DNA of 64,000 nt from Escherichia coli (GTDB taxonomy: Bacteria > Pseudomonadota > Gammaproteobacteria > Enterobacterales > Enterobacteriaceae): assembly GCF_003018255.1 (NCBI RefSeq), contig NZ_CP027440.1. The stretch is one strand, 5' to 3'. Of the stretch, positions 334 to 59,027 are shown one piece after another. The notes beneath the pieces are model-generated. The model did not search any database. It saw only the letters and a program-made list of their open reading frames with translations, and had not been told where the DNA came from. The translations under genes were made by a program, and so were the position numbers. The stretch's first letter is position 1. Each line of letters starts with the position of its first letter.

Positions 334-924
334 TTACTGGTAAGTAATGGTATATGCTGAGTTAGTTTTTACATAACCGGCAGTTGCTGCTTTGCTTGCA
401 TCAGCACGAACATAGGATGCTTTAAAATCGTAGGTTGCAGTTTTAGACGTTGCATCCAGAGTTTTGCTGTAAACATCACCCGGATTATTAACCTGAACCT
501 GCTTAATAGTGGAACCTTCAATATTATGCAGGGCAATATTCACACCATCAGATGGATTATTGATAGACATATCGTTATTCAGAGTACCTTTGCTATTGCT
601 AAAGAACACGGAACCGAAAGTCATTTTTGCAGTAGTACCCGGAGCCGGGTTAGCTTTGCTGCAGTCAATAGTAATGCTGAATGGCTTAGCTTTAGCACCT
701 ACGGTGGTATCCAGTACACCATCGGTGATTTCAGCAACAGTAGCGGTTTGCAGCAGGATCAAACCATCTTTGTTACCGCCATCAACACGAGCTTCACAGG
801 TGTTATCAACGACCAGGCCGCTAATATTTAACTGACCACCGTCCATATCGTTAGCAGCAAATGCAGTACCAGCAGCCATTGCCAACATAATACCAGACAG
901 CGCAAAACCTAATTTTTTAGACAT
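334..924 (-). CDS. yadN: Fimbrial major subunit-like protein (chaperone-usher pilin)
   Basis: ORF track 334..990 (-); start placed at internal ATG 922-924, giving signal peptide [23 protein letters not shown]; pilin-like C-terminus ...YTITYQ; first gene of the yad fimbrial operon. Confidence 0.85.
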
Positions 925-1099
925 AAAAATCCTTGAATAATATTCCATAGAGAGATAACCGCACCGCATGACGATAAGAGTCTGCTGCAATGCTGCGTAA
1001 CAAAATCGTTACTGTGTTAATGATGTTTGTCTGTTGTTTACCAACTATTACATTCATTCATCATCGGGATGGCTATTTTGCATAATGTGATAGCATATG

Positions 1100-8567: not shown

Positions 8568-8660
8568 AGACCAAAGCAAATTTGAGAGATATCTTCTTCT
8601 GTCTTGCAACAGAAGAACAGAAAATCGGGCTTTTGCGCCTGAATATTGCGGAGAAAAAGC

Positions 8661-11192
8661 ATGGCCGGGAATGACCGCGAGCCAATTGGACGCAAAGGGA
8701 AACCGACGCGTCCGGTCAAACAAAAGGTAAGCCGTCGTCGTTACGAAGATGACGATTACGACGATTATGATGACTATGAGGATGAAGAACCGATGCCGCG
8801 CAAAGGTAAGGGCAAAGGCAAAGGGCGTAAGCCTCGTGGCAAACGCGGCTGGCTATGGCTGCTGCTAAAACTGGCTATCGTTTTTGCCGTGCTGATCGCC
8901 ATTTACGGCGTTTATCTCGATCAAAAAATTCGCAGCCGTATTGATGGCAAGGTCTGGCAATTGCCCGCGGCAGTTTATGGCCGAATGGTCAACCTTGAGC
9001 CAGACATGACCATCAGCAAGAACGAAATGGTGAAGCTGCTGGAGGCGACCCAGTATCGTCAGGTGTCGAAAATGACCCGTCCTGGCGAATTTACCGTGCA
9101 GGCCAACAGCATTGAGATGATCCGCCGTCCGTTTGATTTCCCGGACAGTAAAGAAGGGCAGGTGCGTGCGCGTCTGACCTTTGATGGCGATCATCTGGCG
9201 ACGATCGTCAATATGGAGAACAACCGTCAGTTTGGTTTCTTCCGTCTTGATCCGCGCCTGATCACCATGATCTCCTCGCCAAACGGTGAGCAGCGTTTGT
9301 TTGTGCCGCGCAGTGGTTTCCCGGATTTGCTGGTGGATACTTTGCTGGCGACAGAAGACCGCCATTTCTACGAGCATGATGGGATCAGTCTCTACTCCAT
9401 CGGACGTGCGGTGCTGGCAAACCTGACCGCCGGACGCACGGTGCAGGGTGCGAGTACGCTGACGCAACAGCTGGTGAAAAACCTGTTCCTCTCCAGCGAG
9501 CGCTCTTACTGGCGTAAAGCGAACGAAGCTTACATGGCGCTGATCATGGACGCGCGTTACAGCAAAGACCGTATTCTTGAGCTGTATATGAACGAGGTGT
9601 ATCTCGGTCAGAGCGGCGACAACGAAATCCGCGGCTTCCCGCTGGCGAGCTTGTATTACTTTGGTCGCCCAGTAGAAGAATTGAGCCTCGACCAGCAGGC
9701 GCTGTTGGTGGGTATGGTGAAAGGGGCGTCCATCTACAATCCGTGGCGTAACCCGAAACTGGCGTTGGAGCGACGTAATCTGGTACTGCGTCTGCTGCAA
9801 CAGCAACAGATTATTGATCAAGAACTCTATGACATGTTGAGTGCACGTCCGCTGGGGGTTCAGCCGCGCGGTGGGGTGATCTCTCCACAGCCAGCCTTTA
9901 TGCAACTGGTGCGTCAGGAGCTGCAGGCAAAACTGGGCGATAAGGTAAAAGATCTCTCCGGCGTGAAGATCTTCACTACCTTTGACTCGGTGGCCCAGGA
10001 CGCGGCAGAAAAAGCCGCCGTGGAAGGCATTCCGGCACTGAAGAAACAGCGTAAGTTGAGCGATCTTGAAACCGCGATTGTGGTCGTCGACCGCTTTAGT
10101 GGTGAAGTTCGTGCGATGGTTGGAGGTTCTGAGCCGCAGTTTGCGGGCTACAACCGTGCGATGCAGGCGCGTCGTTCGATTGGTTCCCTTGCAAAACCAG
10201 CGACTTATCTGACGGCCTTAAGCCAGCCGAAAATCTATCGCCTGAACACGTGGATTGCGGATGCGCCAATCGCGCTACGTCAGCCGAATGGCCAGGTCTG
10301 GTCACCGCAGAACGATGACCGTCGTTATAGCGAAAGCGGCAGAGTGATGCTGGTAGATGCGTTGACCCGTTCGATGAACGTGCCGACGGTGAATCTGGGC
10401 ATGGCGTTGGGGCTGCCTGCGGTTACGGAGACCTGGATTAAACTGGGTGTGCCGAAAGATCAACTGAATCCAGTTCCAGCAATGTTGTTGGGGGCGTTGA
10501 ACTTAACGCCAATCGAAGTGGCGCAGGCGTTCCAGACCATCGCCAGCGGTGGTAACCGTGCTCCGCTTTCTGCACTGCGTTCGGTAATCGCGGAAGATGG
10601 CAAGGTGCTGTATCAGAGCTTCCCGCAGGCGGAACGCGCTGTTCCGGCGCAGGCGGCGTATCTGACACTATGGACCATGCAGCAGGTGGTACAACGTGGT
10701 ACGGGGCGTCAGCTTGGGGCGAAATACCCGAACCTGCATCTGGCAGGGAAAACAGGGACTACCAACAATAACGTAGATACCTGGTTTGCGGGCATTGACG
10801 GCAGTACGGTGACCATCACCTGGGTAGGCCGTGATAACAACCAACCGACCAAATTGTATGGAGCCAGCGGGGCAATGTCGATTTATCAGCGTTATCTGGC
10901 TAACCAGACGCCAACACCGCTGAATCTTGTTCCGCCAGAAGATATTGCAGATATGGGCGTGGACTATGACGGCAACTTTGTTTGCAGCGGTGGCATGCGT
11001 GTCTTGCCGGTCTGGACCAGCGATCCGCAATCGCTGTGCCAGCAGAGTGAGATGCAGCAGCAGCCGTCAGGCAATCCGTTTGATCAGTCTTCTCAGCCGC
11101 AGCAACAGCCGCAACAGCAACCTGCTCAGCAAGAGCAGAAAGACAGCGACGGTGTAGCCGGTTGGATCAAGGATATGTTTGGTAGTAATTAA
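8661..11192 (+). CDS. mrcB: Penicillin-binding protein 1B (bifunctional glycosyltransferase/transpeptidase)
   Basis: ORF track 8646..11192 (+); start at [13 protein letters not shown]...; acidic [14 protein letters not shown] tract, TM helix [29 protein letters not shown] and SxxK motifs, Q/P-rich C-terminus. Confidence 0.93.
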
Positions 11193-11208
11193 CGTCTAAG
11201 CGTGACAT

Positions 11209-11233
11209 ACCGGATGGCGAGTAGCCATCCGGT
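11209..11233 (+). terminator. Perfect 10-bp stem hairpin (accggatggc-gagta-gccatccggt) just downstream of mrcB stop; no U-tract
   Basis: Read from sequence; followed by A-rich not T-rich sequence, so function as intrinsic terminator is uncertain. Confidence 0.3.
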
Positions 11234-11340
11234 AAAATAACATCCCACCCAAAGTATTAACCCTTTCTTTTCATCTGGTTGTTTATTAACCCTTCAGGAA
11301 CGCTCAGATTGCGTACCGCTTGCGAACCCGCCAGCGTTTC

Positions 11341-11390
11341 GAATATTATCTTATCTTTATAATAATCATTCTCGTTTACGTTATCATTCA
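11341..11390 (+). promoter_or_regulatory. Fur-box-like AT-rich repeats (gaatattatcttatc / tttataataatcattctcg / ttatcattc) in the fhuA promoter region
   Basis: About 14/19 match to the GATAATGATAATCATTATC consensus, 20-70 bp upstream of fhuA start; fhuA is a classical Fur-repressed gene. Confidence 0.5.
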
Positions 11391-11411
11391 CTTTATATCA
11401 GAGATATACCA

Positions 11412-13601
11412 ATGGCGCGTTCCAAAACTGCTCAGCCAAAACACTCACTGCGTAAAATCGCAGTTGTAGTAGCCACAGCGGTTAGCGGCATGTCTGTTTA
11501 TGCACAGGCAGCGGTTGAACCGAAAGAAGACACTATCACCGTTACCGCTGCACCTGCGCCGCAAGAAAGCGCATGGGGACCGGCTGCAACTATTGCGGCG
11601 AAGCACTCTGCTACTGCGACTAAAACGGATACACCAATTGAAAAAACGCCGCAGTCTATTTCGGTTGTGACAAATGAAGAGATGCAGATGCATCAATTTC
11701 AGTCTGTAAAAGAAGCATTAGGTTATACACCTGGCGTTACGGTTAGCAGTCGTGGTGCTTCTAATACATATGATTTTGTTATTATTCGTGGTTTCTCATC
11801 TGTTGGTCTGAATCAAAATAATTACCTTGATGGACTAAAACTTCAGGGCAACTTTTATAACGATGCTGTGATTGATCCTTACATGCTCGAGAGGGTTGAA
11901 CTGATGCGCGGGCCGACGTCTGTTCTCTATGGGAAAAGTAATCCTGGTGGGATTATTTCTATGGTGAGTAAGCGTCCGACAACTGAACCCCTGAAAGAAA
12001 TTCAGTTTAAAATGGGGACGGATAATCTGTTTCAGACCGGATTCGATTTCAGTGATGCGCTGGATGATAACGGTGAGTTCTCCTACCGTTTGACTGGCCT
12101 CGCACGCTCAACAAACGAACAGCAGAAAAACTCTGAATCTCAGCGTTATACCATTGCTCCATCATTCTCATGGCGTCCAGACGACAAAACCAATTTTACT
12201 TTCCTGTCCTATTTTCAGAACGAACCAGAAACGGGTTATTACGGTTGGTTGCCGAAAGAGGGGACCGTTGAGCCATTGCCTAATGGTAAGCGTCTACCGA
12301 CTGACTTCAATGAAGGTGCATCGAATAATACATACTCCCGTAACCAGAAAATGGTGGGATATAGTTTTGAACATGGTTTTAATGACACCTTCACCGTGCG
12401 TCAGAATCTGCGTTTCAGTGAAATGAAAACCTCACAGAAAAGTGTTTATGGCACAGGGATTGCCAGCGATGGTCATACCCTAAACCGCGGGACAGTGGTG
12501 GATAATGAGCGTCTGCAAAACTTTAGCGTTGATACCCAACTTGAAAGTAAATTTGCTACAGGTGAAGTCGAGCATACTTTGCTGACAGGGGTAGACTTCA
12601 TGCGTATGCGCAATGATATCAATGCCAGCTTTGGATCTGCACCATCCATCGATCTTTATAACAAATATCATCCTGAATACTTTGCATTTGGTAACGCAGA
12701 GCCATACCAAATGAATGAAAGCAAACAAACAGGTATTTATGTTCAGGATCAGGCGGAATGGAATAAATGGGTATTCACTCTGGGGGGACGCTACGATTGG
12801 TCTAAGCAAGCGACCACTGTTCGTGAAAACTCTTATACGCCGACTGAAGGTTATATTGAGCGTAATGATCATCAGTTCACCTGGCGCGGTGGTGTAAACT
12901 ACTTATTCGATAATGGTATTTCACCTTACTTTAGTTATAGCCAGTCCTTTGAACCGAGTGCTTTCGATCTGTGGAGCAACCCGCGCGTTTCCTATAAGCC
13001 ATCGAAAGGTGAACAGTATGAAGCTGGCGTAAAATATGTTCCGAATGATATGCCGGTCGTTGTTACGGGCGCAGTCTATCAATTGACGAAAACAAATAAC
13101 CTGACAGCAGACCCAACAAACCCGTTAGCGCAAGTCCCAGCAGGTGAGATTCGCGCTCGTGGTGTGGAACTTGAAGCAAAAGCGGCGTTAAATGCCAATA
13201 TTAACTTGACGGCTTCTTATACCTACACAGATGCGGAATACACCAAAGACACCAATCTCAAAGGTAAAACTCCAGAACAAGTACCGGAGCATATGGCATC
13301 TCTCTGGGGGGATTATACCTTCAATGAAGGGCCGCTTTCTGGTTTAACATTGGGAACAGGTGGTCGTTTTATTGGTTCCAGCTATGGTGATCCGGCGAAC
13401 ACTTTTAAAGTGGGTAGCGCAGCTGTAATGGATGCTGTTGTAAAATATGATCTGGCACGCTTTGGTATGGCGGGATCCAGCCTTGCTGTGAACGTCAACA
13501 ATTTGCTCGATCGTGAGTATGTTGCCAGTTGCTTCCAGACCTATGGCTGCTTCTGGGGCGCAGAACGTCAGGTCGTTGCAACCGCAACCTTCCGTTTCTA
13601 A
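11412..13601 (+). CDS. fhuA: Ferrichrome outer-membrane transporter / phage receptor FhuA (TonB-dependent), divergent allele
   Basis: ORF track 11412..13601 (+), 729 aa; signal peptide MARSKTAQPKHSLRKIAVVVATAVSGMSVYAQA, TonB box DTITVTA, C-terminal ...CFWGAERQVVATATFRF. Confidence 0.93.
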   Translation: MARSKTAQPKHSLRKIAVVVATAVSGMSVYAQAAVEPKEDTITVTAAPAPQESAWGPAATIAAKHSATATKTDTPIEKTPQSISVVTNEEMQMHQFQSVKEALGYTPGVTVSSRGASNTYDFVIIRGFSSVGLNQNNYLDGLKLQGNFYNDAVIDPYMLERVELMRGPTSVLYGKSNPGGIISMVSKRPTTEPLKEIQFKMGTDNLFQTGFDFSDALDDNGEFSYRLTGLARSTNEQQKNSESQRYTIAPSFSWRPDDKTNFTFLSYFQNEPETGYYGWLPKEGTVEPLPNGKRLPTDFNEGASNNTYSRNQKMVGYSFEHGFNDTFTVRQNLRFSEMKTSQKSVYGTGIASDGHTLNRGTVVDNERLQNFSVDTQLESKFATGEVEHTLLTGVDFMRMRNDINASFGSAPSIDLYNKYHPEYFAFGNAEPYQMNESKQTGIYVQDQAEWNKWVFTLGGRYDWSKQATTVRENSYTPTEGYIERNDHQFTWRGGVNYLFDNGISPYFSYSQSFEPSAFDLWSNPRVSYKPSKGEQYEAGVKYVPNDMPVVVTGAVYQLTKTNNLTADPTNPLAQVPAGEIRARGVELEAKAALNANINLTASYTYTDAEYTKDTNLKGKTPEQVPEHMASLWGDYTFNEGPLSGLTLGTGGRFIGSSYGDPANTFKVGSAAVMDAVVKYDLARFGMAGSSLAVNVNNLLDREYVASCFQTYGCFWGAERQVVATATFRF

Positions 13602-13651
13602 TTTTTTCTTTGGGGCACGGATTTCCGTGCCCGCTTCACAAGTTGGCTGTT

Positions 13652-14449
13652 ATGCAGGAATACACGAATCATTCCGATACCACTTTTGCACTGCGTAATA
13701 TCTCCTTTCGTGTGCCAGGGCGCACGCTTTTGCATCCGCTGTCGTTAACCTTTCCTGCCGGGAAAGTGACTGGTTTGATTGGTCACAACGGTTCTGGTAA
13801 ATCCACTCTGCTCAAAATGCTTGGCCGTCATCAGCCACCGTCGGAAGGCGAAATTCTTCTTGATGCCCAGCCGCTGGAAAGCTGGAGCAGCAAAGCGTTC
13901 GCCCGCAAAGTGGCTTATTTGCCGCAGCAGCTTCCTCCGGCAGAAGGGATGACCGTGCGTGAACTGGTGGCGATTGGTCGTTACCCGTGGCATGGCGCAC
14001 TGGGGCGCTTTGGTGCGGCAGATCGCGAAAAGGTCGAAGAGGCGATTTCGCTGGTTGGCTTAAAACCGCTGGCGCATCGGCTGGTCGATAGTCTCTCTGG
14101 CGGCGAACGTCAGCGGGCGTGGATCGCTATGCTGGTGGCGCAGGATAGCCGTTGTCTGTTGCTCGACGAACCGACCTCGGCGCTGGATATCGCCCACCAG
14201 GTTGATGTGCTGGCGCTGGTGCATCGTTTAAGTCAGGAACGTGGTCTGACGGTCATTGCCGTGCTGCACGATATTAATATGGCTGCGCGCTACTGTGATT
14301 ATCTGGTCGCCCTGCGCGGTGGTGAAATGATTGCTCAGGGAACGCCTGCGGAAATTATGCGCGGCGAAACCCTCGAAATGATTTATGGCATCCCGATGGG
14401 TATTCTGCCGCATCCGGCGGGTGCTGCACCTGTGAGTTTTGTTTATTGA
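13652..14449 (+). CDS. fhuC: Iron(III)-hydroxamate ABC transporter ATP-binding protein
   Basis: ORF track 13529..14449 (+); start at ATG 13652 (MQEYTNHSDTTFALRN..., 265 aa); Walker A GHNGSGKST, signature LSGGERQRA. Confidence 0.93.
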   Translation: MQEYTNHSDTTFALRNISFRVPGRTLLHPLSLTFPAGKVTGLIGHNGSGKSTLLKMLGRHQPPSEGEILLDAQPLESWSSKAFARKVAYLPQQLPPAEGMTVRELVAIGRYPWHGALGRFGAADREKVEEAISLVGLKPLAHRLVDSLSGGERQRAWIAMLVAQDSRCLLLDEPTSALDIAHQVDVLALVHRLSQERGLTVIAVLHDINMAARYCDYLVALRGGEMIAQGTPAEIMRGETLEMIYGIPMGILPHPAGAAPVSFVY

Positions 14450-15339
14450 TGAGCGGCTTACCTCTTATTTCGCGCCGCCGACTGTTAACGGCGATGGCGC
14501 TTTCTCCGTTGTTATGGCAGATGAATACCGCCCACGCGGCGATTATTGATCCCAATCGTATTGTGGCGCTGGAGTGGTTGCCGGTGGAATTACTGCTGGC
14601 GCTCGGCATCGTGCCTTACGGCGTGGCGGACACCATCAACTATCGCCTGTGGGTCAGCGAACCGCCATTGCCGGACTCAGTGATTGACGTTGGTTTGCGT
14701 ACAGAACCCAACCTTGAACTGCTGACCGAAATGAAACCGTCGTTTATGATCTGGTCGGCAGGATATGGCCCTTCACCAGAAATGCTGGCACGTATTGCGC
14801 CGGGGCGCGGATTTAACTTCAGCGACGGCAAACAGCCGCTGGCGATGGCGCGTAAATCACTGACGGAAATGGCAGATTTACTTAACCTGCAAAGCGCAGC
14901 AGAAACGCATTTAGCGCAATATGAAGACTTTATCCGCAGCATGAAACCCCGCTTTGTGAAGCGTGGTGCACGCCCGTTATTGCTGACGACGCTTATCGAT
15001 CCGCGCCATATGTTGGTCTTCGGTCCAAACAGCTTGTTCCAGGAAATTCTTGATGAGTACGGCATCCCAAATGCCTGGCAAGGGGAAACCAACTTCTGGG
15101 GCAGTACCGCCGTCAGTATCGATCGTCTGGCGGCGTATAAAGACGTTGATGTGCTCTGTTTTGATCACGACAACAGCAAAGACATGGATGCGCTAATGGC
15201 AACCCCGCTGTGGCAGGCCATGCCGTTTGTCCGTGCAGGACGTTTTCAGCGCGTTCCGGCGGTCTGGTTCTATGGCGCGACGCTTTCGGCAATGCACTTT
15301 GTGCGTATTCTGGATAACGCCATCGGAGGTAAAGCGTGA
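14449..15339 (+). CDS. fhuD: Iron(III)-hydroxamate periplasmic binding protein
   Basis: ORF track 14446..15339 (+); ATG 14449 overlaps fhuC stop by 1 nt; MSGLPLISRRRLLTAMALSPLLWQ (Tat-like signal). Confidence 0.92.
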   Translation: MSGLPLISRRRLLTAMALSPLLWQMNTAHAAIIDPNRIVALEWLPVELLLALGIVPYGVADTINYRLWVSEPPLPDSVIDVGLRTEPNLELLTEMKPSFMIWSAGYGPSPEMLARIAPGRGFNFSDGKQPLAMARKSLTEMADLLNLQSAAETHLAQYEDFIRSMKPRFVKRGARPLLLTTLIDPRHMLVFGPNSLFQEILDEYGIPNAWQGETNFWGSTAVSIDRLAAYKDVDVLCFDHDNSKDMDALMATPLWQAMPFVRAGRFQRVPAVWFYGATLSAMHFVRILDNAIGGKA

Positions 15340-17318
15340 GTAAACGAATTGCGCTTTTTCCGGCGTTATTGCTGGCGCTGCTGGTGATTGTCGCTACGGC
15401 GCTCACCTGGATGAACTTCTCGCAGGCGTTGCCGCGCAGCCAGTGGGCGCAGGCCGCCTGGTCGCCGGATATTGACGTCATCGAGCAGATGATTTTTCAC
15501 TACAGCTTGTTGCCGCGTCTGGCGATTTCGCTGCTGGTGGGCGCGGGCCTGGGGCTGGTGGGCGTGCTGTTTCAGCAAGTGCTGCGTAACCCGCTGGCGG
15601 AACCGACGACGTTGGGCGTTGCAACAGGCGCGCAACTGGGGATTACCGTCACTACGCTCTGGGCGATCCCAGGTGCTATGGCGAGCCAGTTTGCTGCGCT
15701 GGCAGGGGCTTGCGTTGTTGGCTTAATTGTCTTTGGCGTCGCGTGGGGGAAACGGCTGTCGCCGGTAACGCTGATCCTCGCGGGGCTGGTAGTGAGCCTT
15801 TATTGTGGGGCAATCAATCAGTTACTGGTTATCTTCCATCACGACCAGCTACAAAGCATGTTCCTGTGGAGCACCGGAACGCTGACGCAAACCGACTGGG
15901 GCGGCGTTGAGCGTTTATGGCCGCAGCTGCTGGGCGGCGTGATGCTGACGTTATTGCTACTTCGCCCGTTAACCCTGATGGGGCTTGATGATGGCGTGGC
16001 GCGCAATCTCGGTCTGGCCTTGTCGCTGGCGCGTCTGGCGGCGCTGTCGCTGGCGATAGTCATCAGTGCGCTGCTGGTGAATGCAGTGGGGATTATCGGC
16101 TTTATCGGGTTGTTCGCGCCGCTGCTGGCAAAAATGCTGGGGGCGCGGCGTCTGCTGCCACGGTTAATGCTGGCGTCGCTGATTGGTGCGTTAATTCTGT
16201 GGCTTTCTGATCAAATCATCCTCTGGCTGACTCGCGTGTGGATGGAAGTTTCCACCGGTTCGGTCACTGCGTTGATCGGTGCGCCGCTGCTACTGTGGCT
16301 GCTGCCGCGTTTACGCAGCATTAGCGCGCCGGATATGAAGGTCAACGATCGTGTCGCGGCTGAACGCCAACATGTGCTGGCGTTTGCCCTCGCGGGCGGC
16401 GTGCTGCTGTTGATGGCTGTGGTAGTGGCGCTGTCGTTTGGTCGTGATGCGCACGGCTGGACGTGGGCGAGCGGGGCGTTGCTCGAGGATTTAATGCCCT
16501 GGCGCTGGCCGCGAATTATGGCGGCGCTGTTTGCGGGCGTCATGCTGGCGGTGGCGGGCTGTATTATTCAGCGGCTGACCGGAAACCCGATGGCAAGCCC
16601 GGAAGTGCTGGGGATTAGCTCCGGCGCGGCGTTTGGCGTGGTGTTGATGCTGTTTCTGGTGCCGGGTAATGCCTTTGGCTGGCTGTTACCTGCAGGCAGT
16701 CTCGGCGCGGCGGTGACGCTGTTGATCATTATGATCGCCGCCGGACGCGGTGGATTTTCCCCACACCGCATGTTACTGGCGGGGATGGCGTTAAGTACCG
16801 CGTTCACCATGCTTTTGATGATGTTGCAGGCAAGTGGTGACCCGCGAATGGCGCAAGTGCTGACCTGGATCTCCGGTTCGACCTACAACGCGACCGATGC
16901 GCAGGTCTGGCGCACGGGAATTGTGATGGTAATTTTGCTGGCGATTAACCCGCTGTGCCGCCGCTGGCTGACCATTTTACCGCTGGGCGGTGATACCGCA
17001 CGAGCCGTAGGAATGGCGCTGACGCCGACGCGAATTGCGCTGCTGCTATTAGCGGCTTGCCTGACGGCGACCGCGACGATGACTATTGGACCGTTGAGTT
17101 TTGTTGGTTTAATGGCACCGCATATTGCGCGGATGATGGGTTTTCGACGGACGATGCCACACATCGTAATTTCGGCGCTGGTGGGTGGTTTACTGCTGGT
17201 GTTCGCTGACTGGTGTGGGCGGATGGTATTGTTTCCATTCCAGATCCCGGCGGGGCTGCTGTCAACCTTTATCGGCGCGCCATATTTTATCTATTTGTTG
17301 AGAAAGCAGAGCCGTTAA
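15336..17318 (+). CDS. fhuB: Iron(III)-hydroxamate ABC transporter permease (fused duplicated domains)
   Basis: ORF track 15336..17318 (+), 660 aa; GTG start overlapping fhuD stop by 4 nt; two homologous halves, highly hydrophobic. Confidence 0.93.
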   Translation: MSKRIALFPALLLALLVIVATALTWMNFSQALPRSQWAQAAWSPDIDVIEQMIFHYSLLPRLAISLLVGAGLGLVGVLFQQVLRNPLAEPTTLGVATGAQLGITVTTLWAIPGAMASQFAALAGACVVGLIVFGVAWGKRLSPVTLILAGLVVSLYCGAINQLLVIFHHDQLQSMFLWSTGTLTQTDWGGVERLWPQLLGGVMLTLLLLRPLTLMGLDDGVARNLGLALSLARLAALSLAIVISALLVNAVGIIGFIGLFAPLLAKMLGARRLLPRLMLASLIGALILWLSDQIILWLTRVWMEVSTGSVTALIGAPLLLWLLPRLRSISAPDMKVNDRVAAERQHVLAFALAGGVLLLMAVVVALSFGRDAHGWTWASGALLEDLMPWRWPRIMAALFAGVMLAVAGCIIQRLTGNPMASPEVLGISSGAAFGVVLMLFLVPGNAFGWLLPAGSLGAAVTLLIIMIAAGRGGFSPHRMLLAGMALSTAFTMLLMMLQASGDPRMAQVLTWISGSTYNATDAQVWRTGIVMVILLAINPLCRRWLTILPLGGDTARAVGMALTPTRIALLLLAACLTATATMTIGPLSFVGLMAPHIARMMGFRRTMPHIVISALVGGLLLVFADWCGRMVLFPFQIPAGLLSTFIGAPYFIYLLRKQSR

Positions 17319-17324
17319 TAGAAT

Positions 17325-17352: not shown

Positions 17353-18633
17353 TCACAACTTCGCAAACACCCGACGTGCAGCATCGATGGTGTTATTGAT
17401 ATCTTCCATGCTGTGCGCCACGGACATAAAGCCCGCTTCAAACGCTGACGGTGCCAGATAAACACCTTCGTCCAGCATCATATGGAAGAAACGCTTAAAG
17501 CGTTCCACGTCACAGGCCATCACATCCTGATAGCACGTCACGGACTCGGCGTCGGTAAAGAAAATACCGAACATGCCGCCAACGTGGTTTACCACCAGCG
17601 GAATTCCGGCTTCTTCTGCCGCTTCCAGCAGACCTTCTGCCAGACGTGTTGTCAGCTCATCCAGCGTCTCGTGAACGCCCGGCTGTGCGACTTCATTCAG
17701 ACAGGCGAAACCAGCTGCCATCGCAATCGGGTTACCGGAAAGCGTACCCGCCTGATAGACCGGACCAGTCGGGGCCAGCGCATCCATTACATCACGACGA
17801 CCACCGAATGCGCCTACCGGCATTCCACCGCCGATGATTTTGCCGAGGCAGGTTAAATCTGGCACTACGCCGTAATAATCCTGTGCGCCAGCTAGCGCTA
17901 CGCGGAAACCGGTCATCACTTCATCGATGATCAGCAACGCGCCAAATTCGTCACACAGCGCACGCAGACCTGGCAGGAACTCTGGCAGCGGTGGAACGCA
18001 GTTCATATTGCCTGCCACCGGCTCGACGATAATACAGGCAATCTCATGCGGGTACTGTTCGAACGCGGCGCGTACAGAGGCCAGATCGTTATAAGTACAG
18101 GTTAAGGTATGTTTGGCGAAATCTGCCGGAACACCCGGCGAGTTTGGCTGGCCTAACGTGAGTGCGCCAGAACCGGCTTTCACCAGCAGGCAGTCAGCGT
18201 GACCGTGGTAACAACCTTCAAATTTAATGATTTTGTCGCGACCGGTAAAACCACGGGCCAGGCGGATTGCGCTCATGGTCGCTTCAGTGCCGGAGTTCAC
18301 CATGCGCACCATATCCATGGTCGGGACCAGTTCGGTCACCAGTTGCGCCATTTTCACTTCCATTTCGGTCGGTGCACCAAAGCTTAAACCACGCTCGGCG
18401 GCTTCAATCACGGCATTGCGGATCGCCGGATGGTTATGGCCCAGCACCATCGGCCCCCAGGAACCGACATAATCGATATAGGCTTTGCCATCAACATCGT
18501 ACAGATAAGCGCCGTCCGCTTTTTCGATAAACAGTGGAGTGCCGCCCACGCCAGTAAAGGCGCGAACAGGGGAGTTCACACCGCCAGGGATCAGCTCGCG
18601 CGCTGCGCTGTAAAGATTTTCAGACTTACTCAT
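17353..18633 (-). CDS. hemL: Glutamate-1-semialdehyde 2,1-aminomutase
   Basis: ORF track 17353..18633 (-), 426 aa, [26 protein letters not shown]...; class III aminotransferase. Confidence 0.96.
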
Positions 18634-18839: not shown

Positions 18840-20279
<1,440 letters not shown>

Positions 20280-37292: not shown

Positions 37293-38489
37293 ATGAAGCA
37301 ACTCACCATTCTGGGCTCGACCGGCTCGATTGGTTGCAGCACGCTGGACGTGGTGCGCCATAATCCCGAACACTTCCGCGTAGTTGCGCTGGTGGCAGGC
37401 AAAAATGTCACTCGCATGGTAGAACAGTGCCTGGAATTCTCTCCCCGCTATGCTGTAATGGATGATGAAGCGAGTGCGAAACTTCTTAAAACGATGCTAC
37501 AGCAACAGGGTAGCCGCACCGAAGTCTTAAGTGGGCAACAAGCCGCTTGCGATATGGCAGCGCTTGAGGATGTTGATCAGGTGATGGCAGCCATTGTTGG
37601 CGCTGCTGGGCTGTTACCTACGCTTGCTGCGATCCGCGCGGGTAAAACCATTTTGCTGGCCAATAAAGAATCACTGGTTACCTGCGGACGTCTGTTTATG
37701 GACGCCGTAAAGCAGAGCAAAGCGCAATTGTTACCGGTCGATAGCGAACATAACGCCATTTTTCAGAGTTTACCGCAACCTATCCAGCATAATCTGGGAT
37801 ACGCTGACCTTGAGCAAAATGGCGTGGTGTCCATTTTACTTACCGGGTCTGGTGGCCCTTTCCGTGAGACGCCATTGCGCGATTTGGCAACAATGACGCC
37901 CGATCAAGCCTGCCGTCATCCGAACTGGTCGATGGGACGTAAAATTTCTGTCGATTCGGCTACCATGATGAACAAAGGTCTGGAATACATTGAAGCGCGT
38001 TGGCTGTTTAACGCCAGCGCCAGCCAGATGGAAGTGCTGATTCACCCGCAGTCAGTGATTCACTCAATGGTGCGCTATCAGGACGGCAGTGTTCTGGCGC
38101 AGCTGGGGGAACCGGATATGCGTACGCCAATTGCCCACACCATGGCATGGCCGAATCGCGTGAACTCTGGCGTGAAGCCGCTCGATTTTTGCAAACTAAG
38201 TGCGTTGACATTTGCCGCACCGGATTATGATCGTTATCCATGCCTGAAACTGGCGATGGAGGCGTTCGAACAAGGCCAGGCAGCGACGACAGCATTGAAT
38301 GCCGCAAACGAAATCACCGTAGCTGCTTTTCTTGCGCAACAAATCCGCTTTACGGATATCGCCGCGTTGAATTTATCCGTACTGGAAAAAATGGATATGC
38401 GCGAACCACAATGTGTGGACGATGTGTTATCTGTTGATGCGAACGCGCGTGAAGTCGCCAGAAAAGAGGTGATGCGTCTCGCAAGCTGA
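37293..38489 (+). CDS. dxr: 1-deoxy-D-xylulose 5-phosphate reductoisomerase
   Basis: ORF track 37293..38489 (+), 398 aa; NADPH motif ILGSTGSIG. Confidence 0.96.
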
Positions 38490-39448: not shown

Positions 39449-40306
39449 TTGCTGAAGTATCGCCTGATATCTGCTTTTGTGTTAATACCCGTTGTCATCG
39501 CGGCGTTGTTTCTGTTGCCGCCGGTGGGGTTCGCCATTGTAACGCTGGTGGTCTGCATGCTGGCAGCGTGGGAATGGGGACAGCTTAGCGGTTTTACCAC
39601 TCGTTCGCAGCGAGTATGGTTGGCGGTGTTATGCGGGTTATTGTTGGCGCTGATGCTTTTTCTGTTGCCGGAATATCACCGAAATATTCATCAACCGCTG
39701 GTTGAAATCTCACTTTGGGCTTCGCTGGGTTGGTGGATTGTCGCGCTATTGCTGGTGCTGTTTTACCCTGGTTCCGCAGCAATCTGGCGTAACTCTAAAA
39801 CATTGCGCCTTATTTTTGGCGTGCTAACCATTGTTCCCTTCTTCTGGGGCATGCTGGCGTTACGGGCCTGGCACTACGACGAGAATCATTACAGTGGCGC
39901 AATATGGCTGCTCTATGTCATGATCCTGGTATGGGGCGCTGACTCTGGCGCATATATGTTTGGCAAATTGTTTGGTAAACATAAGCTGGCACCGAAGGTT
40001 TCTCCGGGTAAAACCTGGCAAGGCTTTATAGGTGGACTCGCGACCGCAGCGGTAATCTCATGGGGTTATGGCATGTGGGCGAATCTCGACGTCGCTCCCG
40101 TCACCTTACTCATTTGCTCTATTGTCGCAGCGTTAGCCTCAGTGCTCGGCGATCTGACCGAGAGTATGTTTAAGCGTGAAGCAGGAATTAAGGACAGCGG
40201 TCATTTAATTCCAGGACACGGTGGTATTTTAGATCGTATTGATAGCCTGACGGCTGCGGTACCGGTCTTTGCTTGCTTGTTGTTACTGGTATTCAGGACG
40301 CTTTAA
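39449..40306 (+). CDS. cdsA: CDP-diglyceride synthase (phosphatidate cytidylyltransferase)
   Basis: ORF track 39449..40306 (+), 285 aa; TTG start ([16 protein letters not shown]...); polytopic membrane protein. Confidence 0.9.
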
Positions 40307-40317
40307 CGGAAGGTAAT

Positions 40318-41670
40318 ATGCTGAGTTTTCTCTGGGATTTGGCTTCGTTCATCGTTGCACTGGGTGTACTTATCACCGTGCATGAATTTGGTCATTTCTG
40401 GGTTGCCCGGCGTTGTGGTGTTCGCGTTGAGCGTTTCTCAATAGGGTTTGGTAAGGCGCTCTGGCGGCGAACTGATAAGCTCGGCACCGAATATGTTATC
40501 GCCCTGATCCCGCTGGGCGGTTATGTCAAAATGCTGGATGAGCGCGCAGAACCGGTCGTTCCGGAACTCCGCCACCATGCCTTCAATAATAAATCTGTCG
40601 GCCAACGAGCGGCGATTATTGCCGCAGGTCCGGTTGCAAACTTCATTTTTGCTATCTTTGCCTACTGGCTGGTTTTTATTATTGGTGTGCCTGGCGTACG
40701 TCCGGTGGTTGGCGAAATAGCAGCCAATTCGATAGCTGCGGAAGCACAAATTGCACCAGGTACGGAACTAAAAGCCGTAGATGGTATCGAAACGCCTGAT
40801 TGGGATGCCGTGCGTTTGCAGTTGGTCGATAAAATTGGCGATGAAAGCACCACCATTACGGTAGCGCCATTTGGCAGCGACCAACGGCGGGATGTAAAGC
40901 TCGATTTACGTCACTGGGCGTTTGAGCCTGATAAAGAAGATCCGGTAACTTCGCTGGGGATTCGTCCTCGTGGGCCGCAAATTGAACCTGTACTGGAAAA
41001 TGTGCAGCCAAACTCGGCGGCAAGCAAGGCAGGTTTGCAAGCAGGCGACAGGATCGTTAAAGTCGATGGTCAGCCCTTAACGCAGTGGGTGACCTTTGTG
41101 ATGCTTGTCCGGGATAACCCGGGTAAATCCTTAGCGTTAGAAATCGAAAGGCAGGGGAGTCCCTTGTCTTTGACATTAATCCCGGAGAGTAAACCGGGTA
41201 ATGGTAAAGCGATTGGTTTTGTCGGTATTGAGCCGAAAGTCATTCCTTTGCCAGATGAGTATAAAGTTGTACGCCAGTATGGGCCGTTCAACGCCATCGT
41301 CGAAGCCACGGACAAAACGTGGCAGCTGATGAAGCTGACGGTCAGTATGCTGGGAAAATTGATCACCGGTGATGTGAAACTGAACAACCTCAGTGGGCCG
41401 ATCTCTATCGCCAAGGGGGCTGGGATGACAGCGGAACTCGGGGTTGTTTATTACCTGCCGTTTCTTGCGCTTATTAGCGTGAACTTAGGGATAATTAACC
41501 TGTTTCCGTTGCCCGTACTTGACGGGGGGCATCTGCTGTTCCTTGCGATCGAAAAGATCAAGGGCGGACCGGTATCCGAGCGGGTTCAAGACTTTTGTTA
41601 TCGCATTGGCTCGATTTTGCTGGTGCTGTTAATGGGGCTTGCACTTTTCAATGATTTCTCTCGGTTATGA
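40318..41670 (+). CDS. rseP: Site-2 intramembrane zinc metalloprotease RseP (sigma-E pathway)
   Basis: ORF track 40273..41670 (+); start at ATG 40318 ([16 protein letters not shown]..., 450 aa); HEFGH zinc motif, PDZ region, LDGG motif. Confidence 0.93.
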
Positions 41671-41681
41671 GAGTTAGTTAG

Positions 41682-44132
<2,451 letters not shown>

Positions 44133-44253
44133 GTGTTCTCCACAAAGGAATGTAGTGGTAGTGTAGCGATGACTTTAGGCGATCAATATAAGATCGCCGG
44201 GCCACGCAAAGAACTGCACCCTCCGGTGCAAATGGGATGGTAAGGAGTTTATT

Positions 44254-44739: not shown

Positions 44740-44742
44740 GTA

Positions 44743-45768: not shown

Positions 45769-45872
45769 CGTTCCATCTTTTGTTCGCCAAACTTTACGGC
45801 CTGTCTCATTCTTACGATTGCGGCAGGCCGTGTTATTATTGTCGTTTCTTATATTTTGACAGGAAGAGTATC

Positions 45873-53450: not shown

Positions 53451-55592
53451 ATGAACATCATTGCCATTATGGGACCGCATGGCGTCTTTTATAAAGATGA
53501 GCCCATCAAAGAACTGGAGTCGGCGCTGGTGGCGCAAGGCTTTCAGATTATCTGGCCACAAAACAGCGTTGATTTGCTGAAATTTATCGAACATAACCCT
53601 CGAATTTGCGGCGTGATTTTTGACTGGGATGAGTACAGTCTCGATTTATGTAGCGATATCAATCAGCTTAATGAATATCTCCCGCTTTATGCCTTCATCA
53701 ACACCCACTCGACGATGGATGTCAGCGTGCAGGATATGCGGATGGCGCTCTGGTTTTTTGAATATGCGCTGGGGCAGGCGGAAGATATCGCCATTCGTAT
53801 GCGTCAGTACACCGACGAATATCTTGATAACATTACACCGCCGTTCACGAAAGCCTTGTTTACCTACGTCAAAGAGCGGAAGTACACCTTTTGTACGCCG
53901 GGTCATATGGGCGGCACCGCATATCAAAAAAGCCCGGTTGGCTGTCTGTTTTATGATTTTTTCGGCGGGAATACTCTTAAGGCTGATGTCTCTATTTCGG
54001 TTACCGAGCTTGGTTCGTTGCTCGACCACACCGGGCCACACCTGGAAGCGGAAGAGTACATCGCGCGGACTTTTGGCGCGGAACAGAGTTATATCGTTAC
54101 CAACGGAACATCGACATCGAACAAAATTGTGGGTATGTACGCCGCGCCATCCGGCAGTACGCTGTTAATTGACCGCAATTGTCATAAATCGCTGGCGCAT
54201 CTGTTGATGATGAACGATGTAGTGCCAGTCTGGCTGAAACCGACGCGTAATGCGTTGGGGATTCTTGGTGGGATCCCGCGCCGTGAATTTACTCGCGACA
54301 GCATCGAAGAGAAAGTCGCTGCTACCACGCAAGCACAATGGCCGGTTCATGCGGTGATTACCAACTCCACTTATGATGGCTTGCTCTACAACACCGACTG
54401 GATCAAACAGACGCTGGATGTCCCGTCGATTCACTTCGATTCTGCCTGGGTGCCGTACACCCATTTTCATCCGATCTACCAGGGTAAAAGTGGTATGAGC
54501 GGCGAGCGTGTTGCGGGAAAAGTGATCTTCGAAACGCAATCGACCCACAAAATGCTGGCGGCGTTATCGCAGGCTTCGCTGATCCACATTAAAGGCGAGT
54601 ATGACGAAGAGGCGTTTAACGAAGCCTTTATGATGCATACCACCACCTCGCCCAGTTATCCCATTGTTGCTTCGGTTGAGACGGCAGCGGCGATGCTGCG
54701 TGGTAATCCGGGCAAACGGCTGATTAACCGTTCAGTAGAACGAGCGCTGCATTTTCGCAAAGAGGTCCAGCGGCTGCGGGAAGAGTCTGACGGCTGGTTT
54801 TTCGATATCTGGCAACCGCCGCAGGTGGATGAAGCCGAATGCTGGCCCGTTGCGCCAGGCGAACGATGGCACGGCTTTAACGATGCGGATGCCGATCATA
54901 TGTTTCTCGATCCGGTTAAAGTCACTATTCTGACACCGGGGATGGACGAGCAGGGCAATATGAGCGAGGAGGGGATCCCGGCGGCGCTGGTGGCAAAATT
55001 CCTCGACGAACGTGGGATCGTAGTAGAGAAAACCGGCCCGTATAACCTGCTGTTTCTTTTTAGTATTGGCATCGATAAAACCAAGGCAATGGGATTATTG
55101 CGTGGGTTGACGGAATTCAAACGCTCTTACGATCTCAACCTGCGGATCAAAAATATGCTACCCGATCTCTATGCTGAAGATCCCGATTTCTACCGCAATA
55201 TGCGTATTCAGGATCTGGCGCAAGGGATCCATAAGCTGATTCGTAAACACGATCTTTCCGGTTTGATGTTGCGGGCATTTGATACCTTGCCGGAGATGAT
55301 CATGACGCCACATCAGGCATGGCAGAGACAGATTAAAGGCGAAGTGGAAACCATTGCGCTGGAACAACTGGTCGGTAGAGTATCGGCAAATATGATCCTG
55401 CCTTATCCACCTGGCGTACCGCTGCTGATGCCAGGAGAAATGCTGACCAAAGAGAGCCGCACGGTACTCGATTTTCTACTGATGCTTTGTTCCGTAGGGC
55501 AACATTACCCCGGTTTTGAAACGGATATTCACGGCGCGAAACAGGACGAAGACGGCGTTTACCGCGTACGAGTCCTAAAAATGGCGGGATAA
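53451..55592 (+). CDS. ldcC: Constitutive lysine decarboxylase
   Basis: ORF track 53451..55592 (+), 713 aa; Orn/Lys/Arg decarboxylase fold-type I PLP enzyme; location after accA identifies it as ldcC rather than cadA. Confidence 0.95.
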   Translation: MNIIAIMGPHGVFYKDEPIKELESALVAQGFQIIWPQNSVDLLKFIEHNPRICGVIFDWDEYSLDLCSDINQLNEYLPLYAFINTHSTMDVSVQDMRMALWFFEYALGQAEDIAIRMRQYTDEYLDNITPPFTKALFTYVKERKYTFCTPGHMGGTAYQKSPVGCLFYDFFGGNTLKADVSISVTELGSLLDHTGPHLEAEEYIARTFGAEQSYIVTNGTSTSNKIVGMYAAPSGSTLLIDRNCHKSLAHLLMMNDVVPVWLKPTRNALGILGGIPRREFTRDSIEEKVAATTQAQWPVHAVITNSTYDGLLYNTDWIKQTLDVPSIHFDSAWVPYTHFHPIYQGKSGMSGERVAGKVIFETQSTHKMLAALSQASLIHIKGEYDEEAFNEAFMMHTTTSPSYPIVASVETAAAMLRGNPGKRLINRSVERALHFRKEVQRLREESDGWFFDIWQPPQVDEAECWPVAPGERWHGFNDADADHMFLDPVKVTILTPGMDEQGNMSEEGIPAALVAKFLDERGIVVEKTGPYNLLFLFSIGIDKTKAMGLLRGLTEFKRSYDLNLRIKNMLPDLYAEDPDFYRNMRIQDLAQGIHKLIRKHDLSGLMLRAFDTLPEMIMTPHQAWQRQIKGEVETIALEQLVGRVSANMILPYPPGVPLLMPGEMLTKESRTVLDFLLMLCSVGQHYPGFETDIHGAKQDEDGVYRVRVLKMAG

Positions 55593-56102: not shown

Positions 56103-57401
56103 ATGACACTCACGCTCAATAGACAACTTCTCTCCTCACGCCAGATTCTGGTGGCCTTTAGCGGCGGGCTTGACTCCACCGTTCTGCTGCATCAGTTGGT
56201 GCAGTGGCGGATGGAAAATCCGGGCGTCACTCTGCGCGCTATCCATGTGCATCACGGTTTAAGTGCTAATGCCGATGCCTGGGTTAGGCATTGCGAGAAC
56301 ATCTGCCAACAGTGGCAGGTGCCGCTGGTGGTCGAGCGCGTGCAACTTGCGCAAGAAGGACTGGGCATTGAGGCCCAGGCGCGGCAGGCACGTTATCAGG
56401 CATTTGCCCGCACCTTGTTACCCGGTGAAGTGCTGGTCACCGCGCAACATCTCGACGATCAATGTGAAACCTTTCTGCTGGCGCTAAAACGCGGTAGCGG
56501 CCCTGCCGGGCTTTCGGCTATGGGGGAAGTTTCGGAGTTTGCCGGAACACGGCTTATCCGCCCGTTGCTCGCCCGCACGCGGGGAGAACTGGTGCAGTGG
56601 GCGCGTCAGTATGATTTACGCTGGATTGAAGACGAAAGTAATCAGGATGATAGCTACGATCGTAACTTCCTGCGCCTGCGCGTGGTGCCGTTATTGCAGC
56701 AGCGTTGGCCGCATTTTGCCGAAGCAACGGCCCGCAGCGCTGCGCTTTGCGCTGAACAAGAGAGCCTGTTGGATGAACTGCTGGCGGATGATATAGCACA
56801 CTGTCAAACGTCGCAGGGGACGCTGCAGATTGCGCCAATGCTGGCGATGAGTGATGCCCGCCGCGCGGCGATTATCCGCCGCTGGCTGGCAGGGAAGAAT
56901 GCACCGATGCCTTCCCGCGACGCGTTGGTGAGGATCTGGCAGGAAGTGGCGCTGGCGCGGGAAGATGCTTCCCCCTGTTTACGCCTGGGCGCGTTTGAAA
57001 TCCGCCGCTATCAGTCGCAACTGTGGTGGATTAAATCCGTCACTGGGCAAAGCGAAACCATTGTGCCGTGGCAGACGTGGCTACAACCGCTGGAATTACC
57101 GGCGGGACTGGGAAGTGTACAGCTTACTGCGGGAGGCGATATTCGCCCTCCGCGTGCAGACGAAGCGGTCAGCGTGCGTTTCAAAGCGCCAGGATTGCTG
57201 CATATTATCGGGCGCAACGGCGGACGTAAGCTGAAGAAAATCTGGCAAGAGCTGGGTGTGCCGCCGTGGCTACGTGACACCACGCCACTGCTGTTTTATG
57301 GCGAAACGTTGATTGCGGCGGCAGGGGTATTTGTGACGCAAGAAGGTGTGGCTGAAGGTGAGAATGGCGTCAGTTTTGTCTGGCAGAAAACGCTTAGTTA
57401 A
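56103..57401 (+). CDS. tilS: tRNA(Ile)-lysidine synthetase
   Basis: ORF track 56103..57401 (+), 432 aa; PP-loop SGGLDS. Confidence 0.93.
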
Positions 57402-58608: not shown

Positions 58609-59027
58609 TTGTGATTTCCCGACATGTTGCTATTCCCGATGCTGAGCTTGAGATCACCGCCATTCGTGCGCAGGGCGCGGGCGGGCAGCATGTTAATAAG
58701 ACCTCAACGGCTATTCATCTGCGTTTTGACATTCGGGCGTCCAGCCTGCCAGAGTATTACAAAGAGCGTCTGCTCGCCGCCAGCCATCATTTGATCAGCA
58801 GTGACGGAGTGATTGTCATTAAGGCACAGGAATACCGCAGTCAGGAACTGAACCGCGAAGCGGCTCTGGCCCGGCTGGTGGCAGTGATTAAAGATTTAAC
58901 AACAGAACAAAAAGCCCGACGACCCACGCGCCCCACCCGTGCATCGAAAGAGCGCAGGCTGGCATCGAAAGCACAAAAATCAAGCGTGAAGGCGATGCGC
59001 GGCAAAGTGCGCAGCGGTCGGGAATAA
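58605..59027 (+). CDS. arfB: Alternative ribosome-rescue factor B (peptidyl-tRNA hydrolase, RF-like)
   Basis: ORF track 58605..59027 (+), 140 aa; GGQ motif ([12 protein letters not shown]), basic C-terminal tail; 4-nt overlap with yaeQ. Confidence 0.92.

Follow-up and report, generated by a model that had tools for sequence, protein, structure and literature searches.

Orientation of Chi sites, gene direction and replication polarity in a 64-kb segment of the Escherichia coli chromosome

Chi sites in the window and their host genes

The DNA analysed here (hereafter the window, 64,000 nt of Escherichia coli sequence read on one strand) carries, among other genes, the fhu transport genes, hemL, clcA, dapD, glnD, cdsA and ldcC. 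Plus-strand genes cover 40.7 kb of it and minus-strand genes 18.6 kb. A sequence-only reading of the window had appealed to the orientation of 'ribosomal genes'; this stood in part, as rpsB is present, with the translation-factor genes tsf and frr next to it, but the window holds no rRNA or tRNA gene, and rrnH starts approximately 3.4 kb past its end (K-12 coordinates).

Chi (crossover hotspot instigator), the recombination-hotspot octamer GCTGGTGG, is a regulatory cofactor sequence of RecBCD. An exhaustive search of both strands of the window recovered 14 copies on the plus strand and two on the minus strand (Table 1), a split with a two-sided binomial p of 0.004. Dinucleotide-preserving shuffles gave an expected total of 2.22 ± 1.40 against the 16 observed, and at least 16 copies were reached in none of 100 shuffles. 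Three of the sites, at 14131, 15533 and 17177, had been named in the sequence-only reading and assigned to fhuC (13652–14449) and fhuB (15336–17318); all three coordinates proved exact and both gene assignments right, although a further site at 15554–15561, inside the interval 14131–17184 that the reading described, had been passed over. The reverse complement, far from being equally or more dense on the plus strand, is outnumbered 14 to 2.

Table 1 Chi octamers in the 64,000-nt window, with the number of eight comparator genomes that keep each site
Position	Strand	Gene	Strand of gene that carries Chi	Codons or residues	Comparators	Remark
9329..9336	+	mrcB	sense	TTG-CTG-GTG-GAT (Leu-Leu-Val-Asp)	8/8	
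14131..14138	+	fhuC	sense	ATG-CTG-GTG-GCG (Met-Leu-Val-Ala)	8/8	invariant
15533..15540	+	fhuB	sense	CTG-CTG-GTG-GGC	7/8	GCAGGTGG in O16:H6
15554..15561	+	fhuB	sense	GGG-CTG-GTG-GGC	6/8	21 bp past the 15533 site
17177..17184	+	fhuB	sense	GCG-CTG-GTG-GGT	8/8	
17592..17599	-	hemL (minus-strand gene)	sense	CCG-CTG-GTG-GTA	3/8	opposite orientation
19225..19232	+	clcA	sense	CGC-TGG-TGG-CGT (Arg-Trp-Trp-Arg)	8/8	sole site in this frame
23914..23921	+	dgt	sense	TCG-CTG-GTG-GTT		
29394..29401	+	dapD (minus-strand gene)	antisense	CCA-CCA-GCG on the sense strand (Pro-Pro-Ala)	7/8	sole Chi off the sense strand
30775..30782	-	glnD (minus-strand gene)	sense	CAG-CTG-GTG-GCG	0/8	opposite orientation
37388..37395	+	ispC/dxr	sense	Ala-Leu-Val-Ala		
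39544..39551	+	cdsA	sense	Thr-Leu-Val-Val		followed by the 14-kb Chi-free stretch
53525..53532	+	ldcC	sense	Ala-Leu-Val-Ala		
54986..54993	+	ldcC	sense	Ala-Leu-Val-Ala		GCTGGTAG in K-12 and CUVET20-416
56324..56331	+	tilS	sense	Pro-Leu-Val-Val		
58874..58881	+	arfB	sense	Arg-Leu-Val-Ala		kept in K-12

With one Chi per 4.0 kb the window comes near the average density of the K-12 genome, for which 1008 copies in 4.64 Mb are quoted in 10.1101/2021.07.08.451572. The 14 plus-strand sites have a mean spacing of 3.8 kb and a widest gap of 14 kb. Neither extreme of the spacing stood out: the four sites within 3,054 bp of fhuC–fhuB are not an unusual cluster by the scan statistic (P = 0.22), and the Chi-free stretch of 14 kb between 39.5 and 53.5 kb is not special (P = 0.38). 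The gene fhuB has three sites against 0.56 expected; it encodes a hydrophobic permease with nine Leu-Val dipeptides. We also considered the cluster as the recombination boundary of a divergent fhuA allele block and rejected this, no clean boundary being found at any Chi. The divergence from K-12 is centred on fhuA itself (11–14 kb), and the break between BLAST segments at 17319/17352 is an intergenic indel.

Fifteen of the 16 sites are carried by the sense strand of the host gene, and 14 are read in the frame xxG-CTG-GTG-Gxx, that is, as Leu-Val. The clcA site is read as Arg-Trp-Trp-Arg and is therefore largely fixed by the protein sequence. The two minus-strand sites vary between lineages. 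In the comparators that lack the hemL site the octamer is GCTGGTCG or a variant, a synonymous GTC/GTG polymorphism at the valine codon. At the glnD position the eight comparators have GCTGGTCG, GCTGGTTG or GTTGGTCG, so that this Chi is specific to the lineage of the window.

Chromosomal placement and the leading strand

The window aligned with K-12 positions 155,977–220,400, all BLAST segments being plus/plus and in order, at 97% identity. Its identity to strain JNE112863 (154,930–218,929) was approximately 99.9%, with approximately 70 substitutions and one indel in the first kb. The leftmost 2.5 kb of the window is identical in APEC-type strains, and three human isolates from Japan share the stretch from 13 to 18 kb without a difference. 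Seven further, diverse E. coli genomes were inspected for gene order, and the gene tables of nine genomes showed the same order and strand throughout. In the eight other genomes, which share this gene order, the corresponding segment has 13–15 plus-strand and 0–1 minus-strand Chi.

In JNE112863 we placed oriC in the mnmG–mioC gap, at approximately 3.9715–3.9719 Mb of 4.795 Mb, on the basis of a cluster of three DnaA boxes spanning no more than 190 bp. No match to GATCTNTTNTTTT, the strict consensus of the 13-mers, was present at this locus, the real 13-mers deviating from it. The interval 4.055–4.095 Mb of the same genome was tried as oriC and discarded, as it is the recQ–rrnA region. The segment homologous to the window (0.155–0.219 Mb) thus lies 0.98–1.04 Mb clockwise of oriC on the 4.79-Mb circle, and dif lies at 1,590,750–1,590,777 in K-12 coordinates. 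With oriC taken from JNE112863 and dif from K-12, the window falls between the two on the clockwise side, and its plus strand is therefore the leading strand.

The base composition agrees with this placement. GC skew is positive along the whole plus strand and its cumulative curve rises monotonically. At third codon positions the skew was +0.114 in plus-strand genes and −0.041 on the sense strand of minus-strand genes, the latter equal to +0.041 on the plus strand, so that G exceeds C on the plus strand in both gene orientations. The KOPS motif GGGNAGGG, of which the window has few sites, was found three times on the plus and once on the minus strand (p = 0.63), and RGNAGGGS showed a split of 16:7 (p = 0.09).

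We give virtually no credence to the idea that the Chi asymmetry is a small-sample accident carrying no information about replication direction. It is true that there are only 16 sites, and that KOPS, which is polar, splits non-significantly at 3:1 in the same window, but the binomial probability of 14:2 is low, the other eight genomes repeat the asymmetry (their sites are homologous, so not independent), and Chi points the same way as the GC3 skew, the gene orientation and the positions mapped for oriC and dif. Chance is effectively refuted by these concordant independent polarity markers. An origin of the segment, in whole or in part, by inversion or horizontal transplantation, which would make the Chi orientation a relic of another context, is likewise extremely improbable. 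Sub-regions at fhuA, at the yad fimbrial genes (1–2 kb) and at yaeH–yaeI (27–29 kb) are unusually divergent from K-12, which shows that recombination has replaced alleles here, but these stretches are in situ allelic variants and not rearrangements. The constancy of gene order and orientation in nine of nine genomes also opposes a rearrangement, as does the presence of the fhu segment in 5420 of 5426 genomes, at a median of one place per genome, and no gene block in the window has an inverted skew beyond what its coding strand explains. It is the collinearity data and not the Chi count that rule out an old inversion, for which the 64-kb sample alone is insufficient. A native clockwise-replichore segment with the plus strand leading, as the sequence-only reading had proposed, is thus backed by collinearity, the positions of oriC and dif, GC3 skew and synteny.

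Gene direction, codon choice and selection as possible sources of the skew

We consider it very probable that these are ordinary E. coli Chi sites on the native clockwise (right) replichore, with the plus strand leading, and that their skew reflects mainly gene direction and codon choice. The 14:2 ratio would come mainly from the approximately 70% of coding DNA whose transcription runs with replication; a second cause would be the encoding of Leu-Val by its two commonest codons (CTG-GTG), which make up Chi when the codon before ends in G and the codon after begins with G. This is in line with a by-product model based on codon usage and ORF orientation (Colbert 1998, Biaudet 1998 and Uno, as far as the summary given within 10.1101/2021.07.08.451572 goes), and the window agrees with that model in the 14 sites with CTG in frame, in the 15 on the sense strand and in the direction of the skew under synonymous shuffling. 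The shuffle, which preserves the proteins, the per-gene codon usage and the gene orientation, gave an expectation of 5.75 plus-strand and 1.79 minus-strand Chi (approximately 3:1), so that the plus strand comes out ahead even when no force specific to Chi is at work.

The per-gene codon model falls short in number, since it under-predicts the leading-orientation count approximately 2.4-fold (14 vs 5.75, P about 0.0005), and the minus-strand count is not raised (2 vs 1.79). The residual plus-strand excess is common to other CTGG-rich octamers: against the same null, CGCTGGCG occurred 22 times vs 5.5 expected and TGCTGGCG 28 times vs 10.7, and Chi ranked 21st of 141 frequent octamers by excess. 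Since further octamers built from preferred codons are under-predicted as well, the shortfall is better traced to codon-pair context than to Chi. We infer that any extra Chi-specific selection beyond the by-product lies below detection at the scale of the window.

The main competing explanation is Chi-specific, orientation-specific selection, acting through RecBCD rescue of collapsed forks, which would chiefly account for the excess as well as for the 14:2 polarity and leave codon usage a secondary part; correctly oriented Chi would be maintained and wrongly oriented Chi purged. We regard this as possible but unlikely. The excess over the synonymous shuffle, which is confined to the plus strand, speaks for it, and so does conservation: 13 of 14 plus-strand Chi but neither of the two minus-strand Chi are kept in K-12 (hypergeometric P = 3/120 = 0.025), nine of 13 sites in the right orientation are invariant across eight genomes, the minus-strand sites, present in 0/8 and 3/8, being young or polymorphic, and the plus-orientation sites have a conservation of 0.942 vs 0.803 for random octamers matched for gene and frame (P = 0.025). 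Polarisation and core-genome over-representation have, moreover, been treated as hallmarks of Chi (PMC8022716). Against it, Chi is no outlier for frequency under the same null, as its rank shows, nor for conservation (12th of 60), and its conservation of 0.943 does not differ significantly from the 0.866 of the CTG-GTG dicodon in non-Chi flanks (P = 0.14). Sense-strand enrichment in lagging-strand genes (2 vs 1.40 expected) could, at such small numbers, statistically equal that of leading-strand genes (13 vs 4.85), and with a single antisense Chi among the 16 the orientations of replication and transcription are almost never decoupled in the window. An analysis from the Smith laboratory also found genome-wide, frame-specific Chi frequencies near the codon-based expectation (10.1101/2021.07.08.451572). 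A version of selection at the population level, namely orientation-specific purifying selection on Chi, seems to us more doubtful still. It supposes that wrong-orientation Chi would arise repeatedly through synonymous GTC-to-GTG changes at valine codons in lagging-strand genes and stay young and rare, as in the 0/8 and 3/8 comparators above, and that right-orientation Chi would persist, as in the nine of 13 invariant sites; if true, mis-oriented Chi would carry a cost that could be measured and told apart from codon usage.

Whichever weight is given to selection, in a window of this size gene orientation can hardly be separated from the strand on which Chi falls: all but one of the 16 sites are on sense strands, and Leu-Val dicodons make up 14 of them. 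Chi polarity therefore does not constitute independent evidence for replication polarity beside gene direction, the very evidence with which the sequence-only reading had paired it; the approximately 3:1 ratio from the synonymous shuffle leads to the same view. Once gene orientation is known, the Chi skew contributes little more. Polarity is more cleanly tested by computing GC3 skew separately for plus- and minus-strand genes, and by checking collinearity against complete genomes.

Relation to RecBCD function and to known Chi architecture

The recBCD genes themselves lie outside the window. A RecBCD that loads at a double-strand end, such as that of a collapsed clockwise fork, and runs right to left toward oriC would reach plus-strand GCTGGTGG from the 3′ side, where degradation would give way to RecA loading. 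From this knowledge of RecBCD, the 14 plus-strand sites are predicted to protect and repair origin-proximal DNA, and the two minus-strand sites would be inert for an enzyme heading toward oriC. Recognition of the top-strand octamer by RecBCD moving from right to left has been described (PMC5638614). Chi is over-represented and polarised towards the leading strand (PMC8022716; PMC10025158), and both its frequency and its orientation have been argued to follow from codon usage plus ORF orientation (10.1101/2021.07.08.451572).

The sites of the window share with the E. coli Chi/RecBCD system the exact octamer, the host, over-representation relative to composition and a density of approximately one per 4 kb, as well as their location mostly in ORFs with CTG in frame and their leading-strand polarity (10.1101/2021.07.08.451572, PMC8022716, PMC10025158). 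There is no difference in kind; 14/16, or 87.5%, is a polarity drawn from a small sample, and the two sites in the wrong orientation vary between lineages. The window also shares the wider strand asymmetry of bacterial replichores, described for GC skew and for G-rich oligomers such as KOPS, in its positive plus-strand GC skew and its excess of G at third codon positions in both gene orientations. Many G-rich CTGG octamers are skewed as Chi is, for example TGCTGGCG at 28:3. Among skewed octamers, Chi and KOPS have defined protein partners (RecBCD and FtsK, respectively), which most of the others lack. The Chi pattern of the window belongs to textbook knowledge of how the E. coli genome is organised. 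The result confirms an unrearranged piece of the right replichore with a typical Chi landscape, and its import is largely that of quality control.

Number and strand distribution of Chi

An exhaustive two-strand search of the whole window revealed 16 copies of the crossover hotspot instigator (Chi) octamer GCTGGTGG, 14 on the plus strand and two on the minus strand (binomial p = 0.004). Dinucleotide-preserving shuffles gave an expected total of 2.2, and 16 copies were attained in 0/100 of them. The density of 1 per 4.0 kb is similar to the K-12 genome average (1008 Chi per 4.64 Mb, quoted in 10.1101/2021.07.08.451572). The sequence-only reading had listed plus-strand copies at 14131 in fhuC and at 15533 and 17177 in fhuB; all three were exact and the gene labels were correct, but a fourth copy at 15554, 21 bp past 15533, had been overlooked. 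It had also stated that a reverse complement equally or more dense on the plus strand would speak against its interpretation, and the count was 14 versus 2. The four-site cluster at 14131–17184 was not exceptional (scan statistic, P = 0.22), and neither was the largest gap free of Chi in either orientation, 14 kb in length (P = 0.38). This gap covers rseP, bamA, skp, lpxD, fabZ, lpxA, lpxB, rnhB, dnaE and accA; dnaE contains 11 Leu-Val dipeptides, none encoded as Chi.

Chi sites and other features of the window
Feature	Window position	Remark
Chi, plus strand	9329, 14131, 15533, 15554, 17177, 19225, 23914	exact octamer match
Chi, plus strand, continued	29394, 37388, 39544, 53525, 54986, 56324, 58874	exact octamer match
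Chi, minus strand	17592 and 30775	exact octamer match
Chi in dapD	29394	sole antisense-strand site among the 16
Chi in clcA		frame CGC-TGG-TGG-CGT, Arg-Trp-Trp-Arg
Near-Chi positions	10349, 15380, 15785	GCTGGTAG, GCTGGTGA, GCTGGTAG; one synonymous step short of Chi
Largest Chi-free gap	39552-53524	
yadV/yadN-like fimbrial region	1-2000	ORF 334-990, minus strand, intact, 218 aa
fhuA	11412-13601 (flanks 8577-17319)	highly divergent from K-12 allele; 2190 bp (2244 bp in K-12)
fhuC	13652-14449	
fhuB	15336-17318	
HtrA 5'UTR thermometer, upstream of degP	24595-24640	Rfam gathering-level match, expected at locus
yaeI	28030-28842 (region 27001-29000)	presence/absence polymorphism
t44 RNA, upstream of rpsB	33532-33618	Rfam gathering-level match, expected at locus
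rpsB-tsf intergenic	34457-34566	Rfam CssrA sRNA family, 136 bits
pyrH-frr intergenic	36353-36643	~292 bp in some strains, ~150 bp in others

Chromosomal position of the segment

Sequence comparison identified the window as E. coli chromosome. Of 5426 complete E. coli genomes, 5424 contained the fhu segment, with a median of one location each. The near-identical strain JNE112863 (NZ_AP045072.1) matched the window at 154,930–218,929 on the plus strand, differing by an indel-shifted first kb and ~70 substitutions. At coordinates transferred from this strain, 57/57 complete CDSs were intact. The gene order extended from yadV, via fhuACDB, rpsB and dnaE, to metQ; K-12 MG1655 (155,977–220,400) was collinear with every segment plus/plus, and gene order and orientation were the same across the homologous ~50 kb in seven further diverse genomes (O111:H8, E600003, CUVET20-416, GPEC403-625, F765, O16:H6 and APEC O78). 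No rRNA or tRNA gene lies within the window, and therefore the 'ribosomal genes' of the sequence-only reading can only mean rpsB, with tsf and frr; rrnH starts ~3.4 kb beyond the window end in K-12 coordinates. Three plasmid-labelled records among the E. coli genome matches contain the core chromosomal region of the window; possible explanations are an F-prime-like element, a chromid or a mislabelled replicon.

In JNE112863, the mnmG–mioC intergenic gap (record positions ~3,971,505–3,971,882) has the expected context (atp-rsmG-mnmG/mioC-asnC-asnA) and contains three DnaA boxes (TTATCCACA, TTATACACA and TTATCCACA) inside 190 bp. With oriC in this gap and a circular chromosome of 4.79 Mb, the window therefore lies 0.98–1.04 Mb from oriC in the clockwise direction. 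The placement uses dif of the collinear K-12 genome (1,590,750–1,590,777), far past the span homologous to the window. From these two positions, the window belongs to the clockwise replichore and its plus strand is replicated as the leading strand. Third-codon-position GC skew (GC3 skew), an independent compositional test, was +0.114 in plus-strand genes and −0.041 in minus-strand genes on the sense strand; thus G exceeds C on the plus strand for both gene orientations, in agreement with the clockwise placement. The cumulative GC skew rose monotonically over the whole window, and dips of the skew to approximately zero matched blocks of minus-strand genes. KOPS (GGGNAGGG), the polar motif partnered by FtsK, was skewed 3:1, with sites too few and sparse for a polarity marker. 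The earlier interpretation of a native segment on the clockwise replichore, with the plus strand leading, is correct: the features of a native right-replichore segment, namely collinearity, oriC/dif placement and GC3 skew, were all found, the Chi count being redundant with gene orientation.

Per-kb identity to K-12 was 0.87, 0.45 and 0.84 over 11–14 kb (fhuA) and ~0.98 elsewhere; the 13–18 kb stretch was at least 99% identical in only 3/5424 genomes and 90–95% identical in 3392. The fhuA divergence fits diversifying selection acting on a phage/colicin receptor, as well as allelic replacement by recombination. Positions 1–2000 were 70–78% identical to K-12, the 80–90% band holding 3588/5424 genomes, and the leftmost 2.5 kb was 100% identical to APEC-type strains; the annotation of JNE112863, otherwise near-identical, marks the yadN-like fimbrial subunit ORF as frameshifted. 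yaeI was present in the window, K-12, O111:H8, E600003 and CUVET20-416, and missing from the yaeH–dapD interval in GPEC403-625, F765, O16:H6 and APEC O78. The rpsB–tsf spacer is ~258 bp in the window versus ~135 bp in CUVET20-416 and O16:H6, and its length differences, with those of pyrH–frr, suggest insertion/deletion of a repeat-like element.

Codon context and gene orientation

The sense strand of the host gene carried 15/16 Chi, and 14/16 were in the register xxG-CTG-GTG-Gxx, which is Leu-Val in the two commonest codons. Coding coverage was 40.7 kb for plus-strand versus 18.6 kb for minus-strand genes. A synonymous-codon shuffle that keeps all protein sequences, per-gene codon usage and gene orientation gave 5.75 plus and 1.79 minus Chi, a 3.2:1 ratio in the same direction as observed. 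The 14 plus-strand copies were 2.4-fold over this expectation (P ~0.0005), and the two minus-strand copies showed no excess. Under the same null, Chi ranked 21st among the 141 octamers that occur eight or more times, and CGCTGGCG (22 observed versus 5.5 expected), TGCTGGCG (28 versus 10.7), GGCGCTGG, GCTGGCGC, GCTGGCGA and others equalled or surpassed it in extremity. The residual plus-strand excess thus does not appear to be Chi-specific, and points to general codon-context bias together with a G-rich leading strand. Sense-strand counts were 2 versus 1.40 expected in lagging-strand genes and 13 versus 4.85 in leading-strand genes; the two enrichments are statistically compatible, and replication- and transcription-linked effects are inseparable in the window. 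The Chi skew adds very little information beyond gene orientation.

Other octamers were also strand-skewed (TGCTGGCG, 28:3; GCTGGCGG, 16:3; CGCTGGCG, 22:10 and 4-fold above the synonymous-shuffle expectation). Chi was neither the most skewed nor the most abundant, and the (C/T)GCTGGCG Leu-Ala family dominated the strand-biased vocabulary.

Conservation and predicted activity of Chi

Every one of eight comparators (other E. coli genomes) had 13–15 plus and 0–1 minus Chi. K-12, with 14 plus and 0 minus Chi in its homologous span, was identical at 13/14 plus sites and 0/2 minus sites, where it reads GCTGGTCG at both. Minus site 30775 was found in 0/8 comparators and is unique to the lineage of the window, and 17592 was found in 3/8; 9/13 plus sites within the shared span were invariant. 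Most gains and losses came from synonymous substitutions at the third position of a Val or Leu codon (GTG to GTA/GTC, CTG to CTA). The three near-Chi positions are full plus-orientation Chi in other strains (10349 in 6/8 comparators), indicating that such gain and loss is ongoing. Conservation of plus-orientation Chi was 0.942 versus 0.803 for gene- and frame-matched random octamers (P = 0.025), ranking 12th among the 60 most abundant octamers, and did not differ significantly from that of in-frame CTG-GTG dicodons flanked by non-Chi sequence (0.943 versus 0.866, P = 0.14). These values are compatible with, and do not demonstrate, a modest orientation-specific selective contribution.

RecBCD enters at a double-strand end and recognizes Chi when approaching GCTGGTGG from its 3' side. 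Top-strand 5'-gctggtgg-3' is described in PMC5638614 as recognized by RecBCD moving right to left. At a one-ended break from a collapsed clockwise fork, RecBCD would head back to oriC, leftward through the window, so that the 14 plus sites are predicted to be in the active orientation, ending degradation and loading RecA within ~4 kb on average, and the two minus sites to act only on RecBCD moving terminus-ward. Whether the Chi bias reflects selection or follows as a side effect from codon usage and gene/replication co-orientation is debated in print (10.1101/2021.07.08.451572); the leading-strand bias itself has long been known (PMC8022716; PMC10025158). With the exact octamer in an E. coli host, over-represented and of leading-strand polarity, the pattern in the window is textbook E. 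coli genome architecture, already known.
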